DNA of 64,000 nt from Longimicrobiales bacterium (GCA_965202805.1 OZ241869.1:3520001-3584000), one strand, 5' to 3'; shown: positions 11,331 to 16,220, counted from the stretch's first letter. Numbers and translations: made by a program. The notes: generated by a model not told the origin, from the letters alone.

Positions 11331-11372
11331 TTCGGTACGTTCCAGTACCGAAAGGGTGACCAACAGGGTGAT
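11331..11372. repeat. Left-end palindrome TTCGGTAC-GTTCCA-GTACCGAA and AGGGTGA arm-type repeats
   Basis: Perfect 8-bp inverted repeat at 11331-11352. AGGGTGA at 11353 and 11365, with a third copy at 15043 on the far side of the IS. Confidence 0.6.
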
Positions 11373-11416
11373 TGCAAAGGGAATTACATACCTAAGTAAC
11401 CACGGAAGGGCTAAAT

Positions 11417-11635
11417 ATGTCGAAGCGTGATATCCCTGCGGGCCACATAGATGTTACGGGAGTATGCGTACCATTTAAACATCACGAAACGGGAGAACCG
11501 GTCCTAACGCCGTTTGAGAGACTCGGTCCAGATATCAGAGCCATTCTTTGTCAGGAGGTTGCCGAGTTCCTGCGCCGAGGTGGAGACCCGGGAATTACGG
11601 CGACAAATAAAATGAGAAAGTTATGCGATCCATGA
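11417..11635 (+). CDS. Small hypothetical protein (IS passenger)
   Basis: 72-aa ORF just inside the left TIR after GGAAGG; no recognisable motif. Confidence 0.4.
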   Translation: MSKRDIPAGHIDVTGVCVPFKHHETGEPVLTPFERLGPDIRAILCQEVAEFLRRGGDPGITATNKMRKLCDP

Positions 11636-11867
11636 TGTTCTTTTCCTTATGACACGTGTTGCAAAGAGCTTGCAGGTTGTCCTCATCATCAGTCCCATCA
11701 GCAAATAGTGGCCTGATGTGATCTATCTCGAGCGGAAACTCGCTATTTCGGCGGGGACATCTTTCTCCCTTGCTGTGGTGTGGACATATATACTGGCCCA
11801 TGCATTGACACTGATAGTCGGCACGGATTCGTACAAGCTCCTTCGTGATTTCTGATAGATCAGACAT
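11595..11867 (-). CDS. Small HNH endonuclease
   Basis: CQC...C, LEIDHIRP...GTDDEDNLQALCNTCHKEK: HNH/McrA-type motif with Zn ligands. Confidence 0.85.
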   Translation of the reverse strand: MSDLSEITKELVRIRADYQCQCMGQYICPHHSKGERCPRRNSEFPLEIDHIRPLFADGTDDEDNLQALCNTCHKEKNIMDRITFSFYLSP

Positions 11868-11894
11868 AAGCTCGCCCGTTGGGCTACCAACGGG

Positions 11895-12116
11895 TCACTT
11901 GTTCTCCGCTATACGATGCTGCGTACTCATAGCACGCAGTCCGTTGACGATGACCGCTGCTACAGATCGTGGTGCGCTATCGTCCACCAACCGAGTATAC
12001 GCTAGCGCCGCCAACATGCGCTCGGAGCCGGTGACATTGTATCCGCTCCACGACGCTCCGCTTGCCACGGACGCTAGCGTTTCTTCCAATAGTGTACGGC
12101 CTTTCTGGTTGGCCAT
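11895..12116 (-). CDS. Hypothetical protein upstream of the HNH gene
   Basis: 73-aa ORF with strong RBS (GAGAGGAG), co-oriented with the HNH gene and about 27 nt from it. Confidence 0.55.
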   Translation of the reverse strand: MANQKGRTLLEETLASVASGASWSGYNVTGSERMLAALAYTRLVDDSAPRSVAAVIVNGLRAMSTQHRIAENK

Positions 12117-12210
12117 GATTTTTCTCCTCTCTCTTTCCCGGTGTTCCGTATCTAGGGCGCACCAAGACTAGCTGGACAGCCCCCGATGCGCTACCCCCCT
12201 TGCCGACGAC

Positions 12211-12239
12211 TTGACTTCTGCGCGCCCAATGGTTACTAT
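12211..12239 (+). promoter_or_regulatory. Sigma70-like promoter of the transposase
   Basis: TTGACT-17 nt-TACTAT, followed by an AAGGAGG RBS. Confidence 0.65.
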
Positions 12240-12272
12240 TTTTATGTAAACGAATGAACACCGAAAGGAGGC

Positions 12273-13226
12273 ATGGAGACCAGACCGATGGCGAAGAAGG
12301 CACCCGGCAAGCACTTCAGGAAGGGCATAACGCTCGTCGACCTGTTCAGGAGGTTCCCTGACGATGAGGCGGCGGAGCGTTGGTTCGCGGACACGCGATG
12401 GGGCGGAGAGCCCGTGTGCCCGCACTGCGGCTCGATCAACGTCCAGGCAGGCACGACGCACCCTACGATGCCGTACCGCTGCCGTGATTACCGGAAGTTC
12501 TTCTCGGTGAAAACGGGAACCGTGATGCAGTCCTCGAAGCTTGGTCTCCAGAAGTGGGCCATCGCCATCTACCTGCTGGCCACCGGGATCAAGGGCGTGT
12601 CGAGCATGAAGCTCCACCGCGATCTCGGGATCAGCCAGAAGTCGGCGTGGCACCTGCTGCACCGGATACGCGAGTCGTGGGACGACAAGCAGCCGAGGTT
12701 CGCGGGCCCGGTCGAGGTCGATGAGACCTACATCGGCGGCAAGGAGAAGAACAAGCACGCGAAGAAGAAGTTGAGGGCTGGTCGCGGCACGGTCGGAAAG
12801 ACGGCGGTCGTGGGCGCTAAGGACCGTGAGAGCAACCGTGTTGCCGTGCAGGTGATCGAGCACACGGACAAGGCCACCCTACAGGACTTCGTGGACGAGC
12901 ACGCCGATCCAGGGGCGATGATCTACACGGACGGCGCGACAGCGTACGAGGGCCGGGAGCGGCACGAGACGGTTCGGCACAGCGTGGGCGAGTATGTCCG
13001 GGGACAGGCGCACACGAACGGCGTCGAGAGCTTCTGGTCGATGCTGAAGCGCGGATACTACGGCACCTACCACCGCATGAGCCCGAAACACCTCGACCGC
13101 TACGTGAACGAGTTCGCCGGCCGGCACAACATCCGGTGCAAGGACACCATCGAGCAGATGAAGGAAATCGTCCGTGGACTGGACGGGAAGCGGCTGCGCT
13201 ACCGAGAACTCGTGGGTCGACCTTGA
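12273..13226 (+). CDS. IS1595-family (ISXO2-like) DDE transposase
   Basis: Zn ribbon CPHC...C; HTH region; VEVDETYIGG, IYTDG, HTNGVESFWSMLKR, YVNEF. Confidence 0.95.
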   Translation: METRPMAKKAPGKHFRKGITLVDLFRRFPDDEAAERWFADTRWGGEPVCPHCGSINVQAGTTHPTMPYRCRDYRKFFSVKTGTVMQSSKLGLQKWAIAIYLLATGIKGVSSMKLHRDLGISQKSAWHLLHRIRESWDDKQPRFAGPVEVDETYIGGKEKNKHAKKKLRAGRGTVGKTAVVGAKDRESNRVAVQVIEHTDKATLQDFVDEHADPGAMIYTDGATAYEGRERHETVRHSVGEYVRGQAHTNGVESFWSMLKRGYYGTYHRMSPKHLDRYVNEFAGRHNIRCKDTIEQMKEIVRGLDGKRLRYRELVGRP

Positions 13227-13267
13227 CCGAAGGAAGGCCGAAAGGTTATATTGAGGGAATCAGAGCG

Positions 13268-13300
13268 AAAAAGCCCGCCACCGTGGCAGCGGTGACGGGC
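13268..13300 (-). terminator. Intrinsic terminator for the minus-strand M48 transcript
   Basis: On the minus strand, GCCCGTCACCG...CGGTGGCGGGC followed by TTTTT. Confidence 0.6.
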
Positions 13301-13313
13301 TCCTCTCTGGCTG

Positions 13314-13387
13314 GCCCACGTAGCTCAATCTGGACGGAGCACCTGCCTCGCAGCAGAAGGTTGCGGGTTCGAATCCCGCCGTGGGCT
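13314..13387 (+). tRNA. tRNA-like gene or pseudo-tRNA with a 6-nt anticodon loop; isotype unclear
   Basis: Acceptor stem GCCCACG/CGTGGGC; D stem GCTC/GAGC; T arm GCGGG-TTCGAAT-CCCGC; anticodon arm CCTGC-CTCGCA-GCAGA; no encoded CCA. Confidence 0.75.
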
Positions 13388-13464
13388 CTTACAGAATATC
13401 ATAACGTTTCTGGAGCGCAAGCGCAACCCCTGTTAGGGCGTTGCTGAGCACACGTCAAGTTCTT

Positions 13465-14274
13465 CTACCCCAGTGGCTTACAACTTGTCCCGAGCTTCCG
13501 TCCGTCGACTGCGGTCGGGACCAGGGATTCGCCCGCTGCCAGCTTTGCCGCGATCTCGCGGGCGGTGGTTTGGATATCAAGGTACCGCTGTGCGGTGCTT
13601 GGGTGGGTGGCCGTTGCGGTTGCCGCGATGTACGACGGGTTCGCGCGGCCCAAACGCCTCCAGAAGGCAGCAGCACCAGAAACGTCGTATCCAGCGCGCG
13701 CGGCAAAGTACGTGCCTATGTAGTCCGCTTCCGACTCGAATTCCTGTGAGAAAGCATGGAGGCCCGCGTTGGTGAACTCGCTGCCACGATACCCGGTGAC
13801 GGCACCGTACACAGCATCGCCGAGTGCACCAAAGAAGGCATTCCGACGCTTGGCCCCGATGTGGCCGCAGGCCGCGTGTGCAAGCTCGTGGCCTACCACC
13901 ATGGCGATTTCGGCGTCGTTCTCGGCGAAATCGAGTAGCCCGTTCGACACCATGATATCGGTGCCATCCGTTGCGGCGGTGACCTGGGTTGTCGGTAGCC
14001 GCACAAGGCCGTAGGCGCAGGAGACGGTGCCATCCGGTAGGCTGATGATCTTCGTCACACTGCAGAAGTATCCGTTGGCGGCGAGAACGCGCCGACCAAC
14101 GTCCATGAACCGGAGTAGGAGTTTAGGGGACTGGACAGCGTTCGGGCCGCGCTGACGCGCTTGTTCACGCGCTACCGCCGTTGGACCGGAGTAGGGAGCA
14201 CGGGAGGTGGGGGTTGCACACGCGGCTAGCGCAGCAAGGAGGAGGAACAGGAAAAACGCACGGGACCGATTCAT
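13465..14274 (-). CDS. M48-family zinc metallopeptidase lipoprotein
   Basis: Lipobox LAAC; EIAMVVGHELAH; ESEADYIG; THPS. Confidence 0.88.
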   Translation of the reverse strand: MNRSRAFFLFLLLAALAACATPTSRAPYSGPTAVAREQARQRGPNAVQSPKLLLRFMDVGRRVLAANGYFCSVTKIISLPDGTVSCAYGLVRLPTTQVTAATDGTDIMVSNGLLDFAENDAEIAMVVGHELAHAACGHIGAKRRNAFFGALGDAVYGAVTGYRGSEFTNAGLHAFSQEFESEADYIGTYFAARAGYDVSGAAAFWRRLGRANPSYIAATATATHPSTAQRYLDIQTTAREIAAKLAAGESLVPTAVDGRKLGTSCKPLG

Positions 14275-14329
14275 GACGGGCTTGCCCTCCGTCCGAAGTG
14301 TGAAGACGCGCGGCACAACGGGTGCCGGG

Positions 14330-14479
14330 CCGTTGGCAAGCCTACCGCGCAGGGAAACTGCGGGAAGAACTCCTGCCTGTTCGCCCGGGGCGGGGAGCTA
14401 CCCACGACACCCTTGATGGGCTCTTGTATTCGGCAGGTAACCCGACATGGACTACCTGCGCAGTACGGCTTGCCAACGG
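14330..14479 (-). ncRNA. Candidate structured RNA (~150 nt) of unknown family
   Basis: ~24-bp closing stem (14330-14353 with 14455-14479) and nested stems CGGG/CCCG, CCTGCC/GGCAGG, CCCA/TGGG. A minus-strand TTGCGG-18-TATCCT promoter-like motif lies immediately upstream. Confidence 0.5.
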
Positions 14480-14569
14480 TGAGGATAACCCGACTTGATC
14501 GGTCACCGCAAGCGATGCTATCTTTGTCTTCGACGCTGATGAAAACCAACTTCGGGAGCGGAGCCGTTC

Positions 14570-14737
14570 ATGTCAGAAAAGCGACCACGGGGGCGTCCCG
14601 TCGAGTACCCTTACCCGGACCCGATCCCGGACACGCCGGAGAACATCGCCAAGGCTATCCTCGCCACACCACCGAAGAAACCCAAGGAATGGCGGTTCGT
14701 GCAGAAGCGCGAGAGACAAACGAAGCAGGATCGCTAA
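14570..14737 (+). CDS. Small basic protein with AT-hook-like RPRGRP motif (55 aa; not in the ORF track)
   Basis: MSEKRPRGRPVEYPYPDPIPDTPENIAKAILATPPKKPKEWRFVQKRERQTKQDR*, preceded by GGAG. Confidence 0.65.
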   Translation: MSEKRPRGRPVEYPYPDPIPDTPENIAKAILATPPKKPKEWRFVQKRERQTKQDR

Positions 14738-14739
14738 TA

Positions 14740-14991
14740 GTGGATATTGGCGAAGCCCCGGAGCACGTTGATGAACGTGCCATTTACTCAGTGCCAAGTA
14801 TGTATTCGTTCTTCTGTGGGTGCCAAAACGAGCCCATGTCCAATACCTACATCAAGGATCACACCGCCGTGGTTTGTGGCCGGTGCGGAAAAGCGGAATC
14901 TATCTCGGACATGATTACGTCCTGGAAAATCGACGGAATCAAGATTGACGTCAGAATAAGCCCGAGGATTTTCACACACTTCCGAAAGTAA
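14740..14991 (+). CDS. Small Cys-rich (CxC...CxxC) hypothetical protein
   Basis: GTG start 2 nt after the previous stop; FCGC and CGRC motifs; ends just inside the right TIR. Confidence 0.45.
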   Translation: MDIGEAPEHVDERAIYSVPSMYSFFCGCQNEPMSNTYIKDHTAVVCGRCGKAESISDMITSWKIDGIKIDVRISPRIFTHFRK

Positions 14992-15053
14992 GAACAGTGG
15001 GTCAACTTCGTGGTTACTTAGGTATGTAATTCCCATTGCAAAAGGGTGACCAG

Positions 15054-16220
15054 ATGGGCAAACACGGCAGGAAACTCACCGCCGCCTTCGTGCGGAACGT
15101 CCGGGAACCGGGCCTGTACTGGGACGAGCACGGCCTCGTGCTCCGCGTCAAGCCGTCCGGCTACAAGCAGTGGATCCAGCGGTTCTTCATCCACGGCAAG
15201 CGCCGGGAACTGGGATTGGGTCCCCTCCGCCTCGTGACGCTGGCCGAGGCGCGGGACGCGGCGCTGGCCAACCGCAAGGTGGCCCGAGCGGGCGGGGATC
15301 CGAGGAGGACGCGGCGGCGCTCGGTGCCGACGTTCGAGAAGGCGGCGGCCAAGGTATTCGCGATGCACCGTCCGAACTGGACCGACAGGCACGCGGGCCA
15401 GTGGATGTCGACGCGGCGCGCGTATGCGTTCCCCATGATCGGGCGGAAGCGGGTGGACCATATCTCGCCCGCCGATGTCATGGGGGTGCTGCTTCCGATC
15501 TGGAACGAGAAGCACCAGACGGCCAAGCGGGTCCGGCAGCGGATCGGAACGGTGATGCGCTGGGCGATCGCTCAGGGCCACCGGGTGGACAACCCCGCGG
15601 GCGACGCGATCGGGGCAGCCTTGCCCAAGCCGCCCCGCGTCCAGAAGCACTACAAGGCGCTGCCCCACGCGAAGGTGGCCGGGGCGATCGAGGCGGTCCT
15701 CGCGTCCGAGGCGAGGGTGACGGTGAAGCTGGGATTCGAGTTCCTGGTGCTGACGACCTGCCGGTCCGGCGAGGTGCGGGGAGCGCGCTGGAAGGAGTTC
15801 GACTTGGACGACGGGGTGTGGACGATCCCGGCGGAGCGGATGAAGAGCCGCCGCGAGCACCGGGTGCCGCTGTCGGGGCGGGCGCGGGAGATTCTGGCCG
15901 GGGCCAAGGCGCACGCGCCCCAGTCAGAGTTGGTGTTCCCGTCCGCGCGGGGGCTGGTGCTGCCGAGCTTCGAGTTCGCCGGCCTGCTCAAGGCCCTCGG
16001 GGCCGGGGCCGTGCCCCACGGGTTCCGTTCGAGCTTCCGGGACTGGGCGGCGGAGCGGACGGACGCGCCGCGCGCGGTCATGGCGGCGGCGCTGGCGCAC
16101 GCGGTGCGCAACAAGGTGGAGGCCGCCTACGCCCGCTCCGACCTGTTCGAGCGCCGCCGCGTCCTGATGGAGCGGTGGGCGGAGTATCTGGCGGGCGGAC
16201 GGGAAGGCGCCGAAGCCTGA
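15054..16220 (+). CDS. P4-like tyrosine integrase with N-terminal arm-binding domain
   Basis: LTAAFV...GLVLRVKPSGYKQW...GKRRELGLG; catalytic CRSGE, HGFRSSFR, LAH, AAY. Confidence 0.93.
   Translation: MGKHGRKLTAAFVRNVREPGLYWDEHGLVLRVKPSGYKQWIQRFFIHGKRRELGLGPLRLVTLAEARDAALANRKVARAGGDPRRTRRRSVPTFEKAAAKVFAMHRPNWTDRHAGQWMSTRRAYAFPMIGRKRVDHISPADVMGVLLPIWNEKHQTAKRVRQRIGTVMRWAIAQGHRVDNPAGDAIGAALPKPPRVQKHYKALPHAKVAGAIEAVLASEARVTVKLGFEFLVLTTCRSGEVRGARWKEFDLDDGVWTIPAERMKSRREHRVPLSGRAREILAGAKAHAPQSELVFPSARGLVLPSFEFAGLLKALGAGAVPHGFRSSFRDWAAERTDAPRAVMAAALAHAVRNKVEAAYARSDLFERRRVLMERWAEYLAGGREGAEA

Follow-up and report, generated by a model that had tools for sequence, protein, structure and literature searches.

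The window analysed in this work, a stretch of 64,000 nucleotides from a Longimicrobiales bacterium that is probably sponge-associated, contains at positions 11379-15034 an insertion sequence of 3,656 bp. Perfect terminal inverted repeats (TIRs) of 26 bp (11379-11404, plus strand; 15009-15034, minus strand) delimit the element, which is flanked by identical 8-bp target-site duplications (TSDs; ATTGCAAA at 11371-11378 and again at 15035-15042) and encodes an intact transposase of 317 aa (12273-13226, plus strand), preceded by a sigma-70-like promoter recognised by consensus match only (12211-12239, plus strand). This single transposase combines a zinc ribbon and a DDE domain (Zn_Tnp_IS1595 and DDE_Tnp_IS1595; PF12762 and PF12760; NF033547, 200 bits against a cut-off of 75), and together with the GG-ended TIRs, the 8-bp duplication and passenger genes dispensable for transposition it matches the IS1595-family transporter insertion sequences (tIS), which PMC8101967 defines by terminal-GG TIRs and an 8-bp duplication. 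Passenger genes of tIS are dealt with in PMC11891212, which like PMC8101967 cites Siguier, Gagnevin and Chandler 2009 for these elements. What sets the present elements apart from such tIS is a cargo that includes promoter-leader RNA cassettes and tRNA-like genes and that differs in nearly every element, with a small basic peptide recurring near one end; sister elements were compared in 48 distinct versions, 1.4-6.2 kb long, and their cargo is unrelated. Altogether, the element is best explained as a passenger-carrying IS1595 (transporter IS) assembled from independent cassettes. An initial annotation made from the sequence had described its length, ends and transposase correctly, and its estimate of about 70% cargo agrees with the 74% lying outside the transposase ORF. 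The recent activity it proposed is backed by the intact ends alone, because the element is single-copy (a search of its own genome gave no further copies, only three distant transposase remnants) and two runs from a single study, which may be the source sample, have contigs that cross both element ends with zero differences and among which no empty-site joint is listed; in the contigs of runs X1 and X2 no joint spans the element. No att-type repeat was found for the flanking integrase island.

The cargo begins with a stand-alone HNH nuclease of 90 aa (11595-11867, minus strand) that has zinc-binding cysteines, a clear Pfam match (PF01844, E 9e-11) and an intact catalytic signature (H50, N64, C69/C72, H73), and that behaves as an independent passenger. 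Upstream of it lies a 73-aa ORF with a good ribosome-binding site (11895-12116, minus strand), which has no assigned function, relatives in 0 of 18 congeneric genomes and no usable Atlas match. Overlapping the 3′ end of the HNH gene on the other strand is a 72-aa ORF (11417-11635, plus strand), one of the three small ORFs counted in the initial annotation and probably spurious, with no homologue in the sister loci and, as its sole match in relatives, 25 codons at and adjoining the HNH end in G002. Near the right end are found a 55-aa basic peptide (14570-14737, plus strand) and a cysteine-containing ORF of 83 aa (14740-14991, plus strand). The first recurs as an accessory gene among these IS1595 elements, with homologues in 29 other loci, and is the only extra ORF of the smallest ones; its Atlas clusters are hypothetical proteins and it has no Pfam match. 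The second, of unassigned function, gives a weak HEWD match below the cut-off and has no homologue in the sister loci. The AT-hook peptide of the initial annotation finds no support in Pfam. Between both groups of genes, a tRNA-like gene (13314-13388, plus strand; RF00005, 56.1 bits), already recognised as such, converges on an M48 metallopeptidase lipoprotein of 269 aa (13465-14274, minus strand), whose identification is borne out by PF01435, a lipobox and the HELAH motif, and whose transcript likely ends at a hairpin followed by a U tract (13268-13301, minus strand).

The main finding of this analysis lies upstream of the M48 gene. The structured sequence of about 150 nt that had been reported there is real, but its strand had to be corrected: it is the minus-strand, promoter-proximal leader of the lipoprotein gene and not a partner of the HNH nuclease. 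The fold at 14330-14479 reaches z-scores of -6.0 and -6.6 on the plus and minus strands, with 0 of 200 shuffles as stable, values that are flattered because this segment was picked on an inverted repeat, a 5-nt shift giving z -2.2. Directly before the leader are promoter-like -35 (14511-14506) and -10 (14487-14482) boxes on the minus strand (14482-14511), weak by themselves and missed by a general promoter scan, although placed as in many relatives. On this same strand follow a 5′ arm (14447-14476) with an upstream target at 14474-14467, which pairs with a variable segment of the leader; a core of 127 nt (14320-14446), a predicted processed small RNA on the basis of RF02221, covariation and a covariance model of our own; and a ribosome-binding site (14290-14286) adjoining a downstream target (14286-14279; together 14279-14290, shuffle p 0.03). 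The core comprises a 9-bp closing stem plus ACCC, an AAUA-containing internal loop, an inner hairpin, a variable hairpin and the antisense segment itself (14342-14335).

A pattern search, which itself forced conservation in part of the core, returned 64 distinct leader cores, most of them before signal-peptide genes, and near-invariant unpaired bases are seen in the core. In the alignment 94.7% of the cells at paired positions are indeed paired, 9 of 25 pairs show two-sided changes, and the covariation score is reached by 0 of 500 shuffles, with slid controls far lower. The window core scores 88 bits with our covariance model, a value inflated by its presence in the training set, and this model places the leader in 16 of 141 genomes of the family; the pattern had 0 matches in viral contigs, and Rfam at gathering level gave no family for the leader in 11 sister loci. 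The pattern-found and the model-found relatives include related sequences and are not independent. A G at +1 is present in 55 of 55 leaders and RCC follows the stem in most, while NCCA ends occur in 27 of 55 leaders of the pattern set and 10 of 23 of the model-found set (the window copy has ACCC), and U at -1 in 43 of 55 versus 9 of 23. The genes behind these leaders are mutually unrelated, with an enrichment in envelope and secreted proteins and a signal-peptide-like start in 32 of 50.

This organisation bears on the initial proposal that the HNH nuclease, the tRNA-like RNA and the structured RNA, lying inside one TIR pair, work as one RNA-linked module of addiction, defence or nuclease guidance. 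In the HNH-RNA systems OMEGA (IscB) and HEARO, too, an HNH domain shares a mobile element with a structured RNA, and the present nuclease, with its intact signature and a weak similarity to the HNH domains of restriction enzymes and IscB, would fit such a role. Unlike in those systems, the 90-aa HNH stands alone without a RuvC part, the RNA is 2.5 kb off and tied to another gene, and nuclease and RNA do not co-occur. A search for full-length IscB (RuvC plus HNH) covered the HNH motif alone with 34 bits against a cut-off of 175, HEARO RNA had no Rfam match, and PADLOC returned weak HNH-motif matches only. Moreover, among the 87 sister elements tabulated, whose cargo is shuffled, an HNH is present in 8 (mostly as part of larger restriction-modification-like proteins; three weak profile matches, L410, L411 and L413, on a small TIR-side peptide were left out of the count), and 0 of these 8 carry the leader or the tRNA-like gene. 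This HNH is likewise absent from all 63 other leader loci, and its nearest relative (81%) belongs to an integrase island beside tRNA-Ile, outside any IS1595 element and with neither RNA nor transposase nearby. Shuffled cargo, an HNH that never accompanies either RNA in the 87 sister elements and a nearest relative outside IS1595 amount, for the nuclease, to the outcome that the initial annotation had itself named as refuting its idea, so that an HNH-plus-RNA module is not supported; both RNAs are real and do co-occur in the host family, but the three-part module is very improbable and an RNA-guided or RNA-neutralised nuclease is not borne out.

The variable 5′ arms of the leaders pair with their own 3′ segments much better than with swapped ones (-30.3 versus -14.5 kcal/mol; the cognate partner ranks first in 43 of 55), and so they do in the model-found set (-33.1 versus -19.6; 11 of 23). 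The pairing with the downstream region is a small effect, with -19.0 for own versus -17.3 for other partners, a longest match of 5.3 versus 4.8 nt (p 2.5e-4, n=44) and the cognate partner ranking first in no more than 2 of 44; a pyrimidine bulge/Shine-Dalgarno test was marginal (p 0.026). In the window the same 8-mer target occurs both upstream and beside the ribosome-binding site, and a direct repeat of the 5′ arm downstream, present here and in a few relatives, has no family-wide signal (4.8 versus 4.7, p 0.36). As far as sequence comparison reaches, this is a conserved leader with sequence-specific pairings, and the complementary targets up- and downstream in its own transcript, the upstream one strong and the downstream one modest, are a trait of C4/CI-type RNAs.

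Two groups of RNAs are closest to this organisation. The first is sRNA-Xcc1 (RF02221), known from Xanthomonas integron cassettes, prophages and Xylella islands, and presented in the sources consulted as an sRNA linked to virulence that acts in trans on distant targets, which are predicted. Its model is covered end to end in the window (14316-14446, 19.3 bits) and in 4 of 6 relatives, with scores of 19-31 bits overall (26-31 in the relatives) that are far below the gathering cut-off of 53 and singly not significant; a genome-wide search with it gave no match anywhere and was uninformative, the controls being equally silent. Both RNAs share the 9-bp closing stem followed by RCC, the AAUACAA/GAAU internal loop, a second variable hairpin, the mobile-element location, the position before a gene and the complementary sites up- and downstream. 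They differ in that the leader has a core of about 125 nt instead of 87, an extra inner hairpin domain and a contiguous arm helix of 15-20 bp in place of two short sites, and in that it precedes secreted proteins whereas sRNA-Xcc1 precedes SymE, ORF6N or antirepressor-type genes. At true sRNA-Xcc1 loci the upstream and downstream targets co-vary (7.8 versus 6.1 and 7.3 versus 5.6 nt, n=25), and by comparison these data suggest that sRNA-Xcc1, like phage C4 and CI, targets its own transcript, upstream of itself and at the ribosome-binding region downstream.

The second group comprises precisely these phage RNAs. C4 of phages P1 and P7 and CI of satellite P4 lie in the leader of the transcript that they control (PMC4825925, PMC5499578, PMC12197685), CI undergoes processing and has pairing sites on either side of its own sequence (PMC4825925), and both are RNase P substrates (PMC5499578). 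The leader resembles them in its targets on both sides, its variable code and a tRNA-like closing stem that may suit RNase P, and departs from them in lacking antirepressor or replication genes, in being carried by an insertion sequence and in that its processing and termination are predicted. IsrK of Gifsy-1, whose short leader isoform acts in trans on the long one and alters ribosome access according to PMC4825925, is made by termination and activates translation, and the leader has no Rfam sequence match to C4 or IsrK. Other candidates were discarded: a retron has a reverse transcriptase next to an RNA that inverted repeats close off, and none of the element ORFs scanned, nor any of 42 downstream ORFs in relatives, encodes such an enzyme; HDV-like ribozyme and T-box readings are at odds with the topology and the bulge; and an RNA-antitoxin system would call for a toxin family fixed beside the leader, where the downstream genes are mutually unrelated. 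The leader, a long relative of the phage "immunity" antisense RNAs, probably acts as an on/off switch for a secreted-protein gene.

The explanation that we favour, with modest confidence, is a self-targeting leader antisense RNA in an element of independent cassettes. The leader promoter would give rise to an RNA whose variable 5′ arm pairs with its variable 3′ segment; in an alternative fold, the 9-bp stem ending in RCC(A) would close the core, which host RNase P could excise as a small RNA as it does with phage C4 and CI. The variable segment thus freed would anneal to further transcripts from its own cassette, both at the upstream arm and at the ribosome-binding region, and set the expression of the secreted passenger, most likely downwards. 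A cassette that enters a naive cell would first be expressed and later damped, under a code private to that cassette. That the leader is transcribed and processed, and the direction in which it regulates, are here predictions from sequence patterns. The IsrK precedent is one of activation and not repression, which counts against a repressing sign.

The near-invariant unpaired bases of the core, its two mutually competing helices, its location between promoter and start codon and the enrichment before envelope and secreted proteins would also suit a purely cis-acting switch, riboswitch-like or protein-bound, in which ligand sensing by the invariant internal loop would decide between the arm-paired and the closed-stem folds and with them the accessibility of the ribosome-binding site, with no small RNA in trans. 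A ligand switch, however, needs neither arms that vary by cassette yet stay complementary nor a downstream region that tracks them, and the core coincides with an 88-nt RNA detected by Northern blot in Xanthomonas (PMC2996969), which makes this switch rather unlikely. With the self-targeting antisense reading, an uncatalogued and widespread leader RNA gains a testable mechanism, and by comparison so does sRNA-Xcc1. If true, insertion sequences would have reused a phage-type immunity logic to control surface and secreted proteins in symbionts, and the antisense-leader pairs of this family, orthogonal by nature, would make a useful list of regulatory parts.

As regards the tRNA-like gene, a promoter-like site with 10 of 12 matches (13223-13252, plus strand) precedes an Arg-like body with acceptor, D and T arms in a cloverleaf, no encoded CCA and an anticodon loop of 6 nt in place of the canonical 7 nt with a readable anticodon. 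Similar odd genes, with Arg-like or Cys-like bodies, are found in sister elements (ARAGORN threshold 95, 80 being noise). In the host family, whose genomes were partly selected for carrying the leader, 5 of 39 elements have the tRNA-like gene and 15 of 39 the leader, and all 5 tRNA-like genes accompany a leader (Fisher p 0.005, or 0.014 with two kin merged; kin are not independent). We infer a separately promoted, non-decoding RNA that would often travel with leader cassettes.

This association, and a convergent order (transposase, tRNA-like gene, then secreted gene and leader on the opposite strand) shared by 6 of 7 such elements, that of the window among them, invite the idea of a single two-RNA circuit in which the tRNA-like transcript or convergent read-through triggers or titrates the switch. 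Such a circuit appears doubtful, since 10 of 15 leader elements lack the tRNA-like gene, the selection of genomes weighs on the association, the 5 tRNA-like genes and 4 leaders of 48 elements from other phyla never coincide, and anticodon arms, taken as guide or decoy, show no closer match to their own leader than to those of other elements (identity 6.0 versus 5.5, complement 5.4 versus 5.6, n=7). In its broadest and equally doubtful form, sponge-symbiont insertion sequences would control their secreted cargo through a layer of two RNAs, a long Xcc1/C4-type leader and a tRNA mimic: the leader may provide a private antisense code per cassette, with element-level immunity and an expression burst on entry, and the mimic, with its disabled anticodon loop and transcribed head-on from the transposase end, may trip or tune the switch, for instance by competing for RNase P or by serving as a decoy that is cleaved under stress. 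Unlikely, if somewhat more credible, is that the gene is a decaying captured tRNA without function in an element that is a chance mosaic apart from its leader-gene cassette; the broken anticodon loop, the differing bodies and the half tRNAs left by integration near other elements are what such decay would leave, whereas fully paired acceptor, D and T stems, alterations that repeatedly affect the anticodon loop alone, a good promoter and a non-random position are not. This last possibility touches the tRNA-like part only, and is compatible with the self-targeting leader antisense RNA.

An IS1595 element of 3,656 bp with perfect 26-bp terminal repeats, a target duplication and an intact transposase had been claimed in the initial annotation, and all of these were recovered: the element (11379-15034) is bounded by such terminal inverted repeats (TIRs), has the duplication ATTGCAAA at both sides and encodes an intact IS1595-type transposase of 317 aa. 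Its other products are a 90-aa HNH protein, the previously annotated M48 lipoprotein (269 aa, 13465-14274) and a 55-aa basic peptide, while the three small ORFs also annotated stayed without assignment, one of them being probably spurious. An 87% identical M48 lipoprotein (P0002) comes from a 2.3-kb metagenome contig. The element is found once in the 4.02-Mb genome, with a lower G+C content (0.59 versus 0.68), and both its ends are spanned with zero differences by contigs from two runs of one study, which may be the source sample. A tyrosine integrase probably starts at an ATG 19 bases beyond the element, and the insertion may perturb its expression or excision. The insertion point is among short AGGGTGACCA repeats (region 15035-16220) that look like integrase arm sites; the integrase belongs to a 4-kb-scale island, for which no att repeat was found.

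A search by transposase gave 79 sister loci, from taxa including Ca. Palauibacter, Ca. Poribacteria and Ca. Spongiisocius, and the host is presumably sponge-associated. A TIR pair was present in 69 of the 79 loci, which, after removal of one doubtful pair and collapse of the remainder, left a set A of 48 distinct elements, the shortest 1,410 and the longest 6,209 bp. Set B comprised 39 elements (41 host-family loci minus two duplicating set A), taking 2.5 kb on each side of the transposase in loci without a detectable TIR pair. Cargo varied element by element across set A, and neither the M48 gene nor the three unassigned ORFs had a match in any other of the 79 loci. The element is a transporter IS with shuffled cargo. 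The 55-aa peptide (14570-14737) was matched in 29 other loci and is the sole extra ORF of the smallest sister elements, which suggests an accessory role in the element and not a passenger. Basic peptides of similarly small size, falling into a few related types, adjoin one TIR in many of these IS1595 elements (14570-14737 in the window; L089:7164-7343; L093; L107; L410; L411; L413), and are possibly a transposition accessory factor.

The initial annotation had joined the HNH protein, the tRNA-like RNA and a structured RNA into one module, proposing a tabulation of cargo co-occurrence. Once made on sets A and B, this tabulation spoke against the module, with shuffled cargo and neither RNA in any of the eight HNH-bearing sister elements (7/48 in set A and 1/39 in set B by profile, excluding three extra weak matches on small peptides), where most HNH domains are portions of larger methyltransferase- or restriction-type proteins. 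The sole close homologue of the window HNH (81%) sits in another genome (G002), flanked by an integrase and a tRNA-Ile gene, and 16 kb of that region contain neither an IS1595 transposase nor the leader. The own genome has a 54% paralogue, which is surrounded by other small mobile genes, also without the leader. The HNH gene is unlinked to the leader and the tRNA-like gene. Its match to IscB was confined to the HNH motif (34 bits, cut-off 175). DNA methyltransferase-HNH genes are a repeated cargo (L048, L055, L104, L108, L109, L095) and candidate single-gene restriction-modification systems. A second cargo cluster of the own genome (L211:8087-9197; G000:C1 about 502000-503200) holds an odd tRNA-like gene whose loop reads TTA, a 71-aa ORF, the 54% HNH paralogue and a 100-aa ORF related to L106 cargo.

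The annotated structured RNA of ~150 nt did prove real and conserved, as the leader of the M48 gene (core 14320-14446, minus strand) and not as an HNH partner. In the sense of the window's minus strand, the parts are arranged alike in every copy. Promoter-like boxes come first, then a 5' arm of variable sequence and a strand, X, of 9 nt. A conserved domain follows, in which an internal loop includes AAUA and which also forms an inner hairpin. Next are a hairpin and a segment that both vary, the strand pairing with X, and RCC(A/C); a ribosome-binding site and start codon end the series. In the inner-hairpin loop (14393-14403, minus) a self-complementary AGCU is nearly invariant and might serve for kissing or dimerisation. 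Four set A elements contain leader homologues, as does one locus lacking a TIR pair, and a pattern search, giving 64 distinct cores in total, found 72 metagenome matches, none in viral contigs, and 10 of 401 phylum genomes (host family, 9/69), with none for a reversed-pattern control in the same genome search; a covariance model detected the leader in 16 of 141 host-family genomes. The window-type transposase family was present in the flanks, often short, of only 14/64 leader loci; the leader's distribution thus extends beyond these IS1595 elements. By a crude rule, 32 of 50 downstream genes have a signal-peptide-like start, with a lipobox in 18, compared to a background of 24/149 ORFs that includes false ones; Pfam matches, in 14 of the 42 downstream ORFs scanned (63 called), belong to unrelated families.

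Among 55 of the 64 cores (nine near-duplicate, truncated or atypical copies being left out), 94.7% of the cells were paired and 9/25 pairs had two-sided changes, with a covariation score reached by 0/500 shuffles and slid controls far below; some of the core conservation was imposed by the pattern used for searching. Variable arms paired at -30.3 kcal/mol with their own partner versus -14.5 with one swapped from another copy (own best in 43/55), and at -33.1 versus -19.6 in 23 model-found copies (own best in 11). Matches were strong upstream (9.2 nt own versus 4.8) and modest downstream (5.3 versus 4.8 nt, p 2.5e-4; -19.0 versus -17.3 kcal/mol; n=44), and in the window leader a single 8-mer target is present twice, at 14474-14467 and again at 14286-14279 (shuffle p 0.03). 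At the level of sequence, the leader is a conserved, two-state RNA with private predicted pairings.

In the Rfam search the leader reached no family at its cut-off. Yet RF02221 (sRNA-Xcc1) gives a full-length alignment with its limits exactly at X and RCC, at 19.3 bits in the window and at 28-31 bits in four of six leader relatives (cut-off 53); the leader is a distant long relative of sRNA-Xcc1, scoring below the level of formal membership. sRNA-Xcc1 is reported as an 88-nt RNA on Northern blot (PMC2996969), near C4 and IsrK in Xylella islands (PMC12189769), ahead of symE in integron cassettes (bioRxiv 2025.06.18.660453) and, in APSE phages, ahead of a gene for ORF6N (bioRxiv 2020.03.17.996009); PMC11701678 has RF02221 only in a list of structure updates. 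In true members from viral contigs (L219-L228, L229-L348), whose canonical loci end in RCC(A), the second-hairpin loop and next bulge are complementary to upstream sites and to downstream ribosome-binding-site sites, and all co-vary. From 130 loci, 29 were distinct, complete in their flanks and clear as to the 3' end, and 25 remained, kin included, after merging identical middles; here the longest match averaged 7.8 nt own versus 6.1 swapped upstream and 7.3 versus 5.6 downstream, with 0/5,000 permutations as high. This self-targeting on both sides is the layout of the P4 CI RNA, which is processed out of a leader and has two pairing targets, seqA on its upstream side and seqC on its downstream side (PMC4825925), CI and C4 being RNase P substrates (PMC5499578; PMC12197685, PMC3632133, PMC8201110). 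The literature searched, mostly without subscription papers and without the main sRNA-Xcc1 paper, yielded no description of the long leader or of a C4-like action of sRNA-Xcc1.

We propose that the leader works in like manner to C4 and CI: RNase P would process the core, which would act in trans on its own cassette's transcript, probably repressing the secreted passenger after element establishment, a reading that we favour by a modest degree. Its main rival, where the leader would be a switch acting only in cis, seems rather unlikely. Further structured leaders precede lipoprotein genes in sister elements (L039:7217-8445; L041:7653-8631; L044:5459-5619; L105:11787-11949), those of L044 and L105 being weak variants of the window leader (38 and 22 bits) and the other two giving the impression of a different type. 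A tandem 1.24-kb repeat in another genome (L212:5608-7209, G340) shows a leader copy interrupted by an IS1595 end and then a tRNA-like gene.

As annotated, the tRNA-like gene (13314-13388, plus strand) is matched by RF00005, at 56.1 bits, though with an anticodon loop of 6 nt, and a promoter-like site of its own is located where the transposase ORF stops. Comparable genes, of which no description in IS1595 elements was found in the literature searched (mostly without subscription papers), keep paired stems but differ from the norm in the anticodon loop, whether by its length (6, 8 or 9 nt) or by an anticodon at odds with the body. They occur in 5/48 set A elements (three weak, 18-24 bits) and 5/39 set B elements. 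That they might act as partners of the leader is hinted at by all five of set B falling within the 15 leader-carrying elements of its 39 (Fisher p 0.005, or 0.014 when two kin count as one), in a set drawn in part from leader-positive genomes, and by the convergent order of transposase and tRNA-like gene facing secreted gene and leader in six of seven elements with both (window and L138 counted). However, set A shows no such overlap, ten of the 15 leader elements lack a tRNA-like gene, and the anticodon arms show no code for their own leader. Inside one IS1595 element (L138:1798-1874), an Arg-like body bears a GCT (Ser) anticodon and an encoded CCA, a tRNA that, if charged with arginine, would mistranslate. 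Some tRNA-like genes have a promoter and long hairpin 5', or purine-rich/pyrimidine-rich flanks able to pair (L067, L084 and L087, near a TIR; L162, L389, L390, L394, L401).
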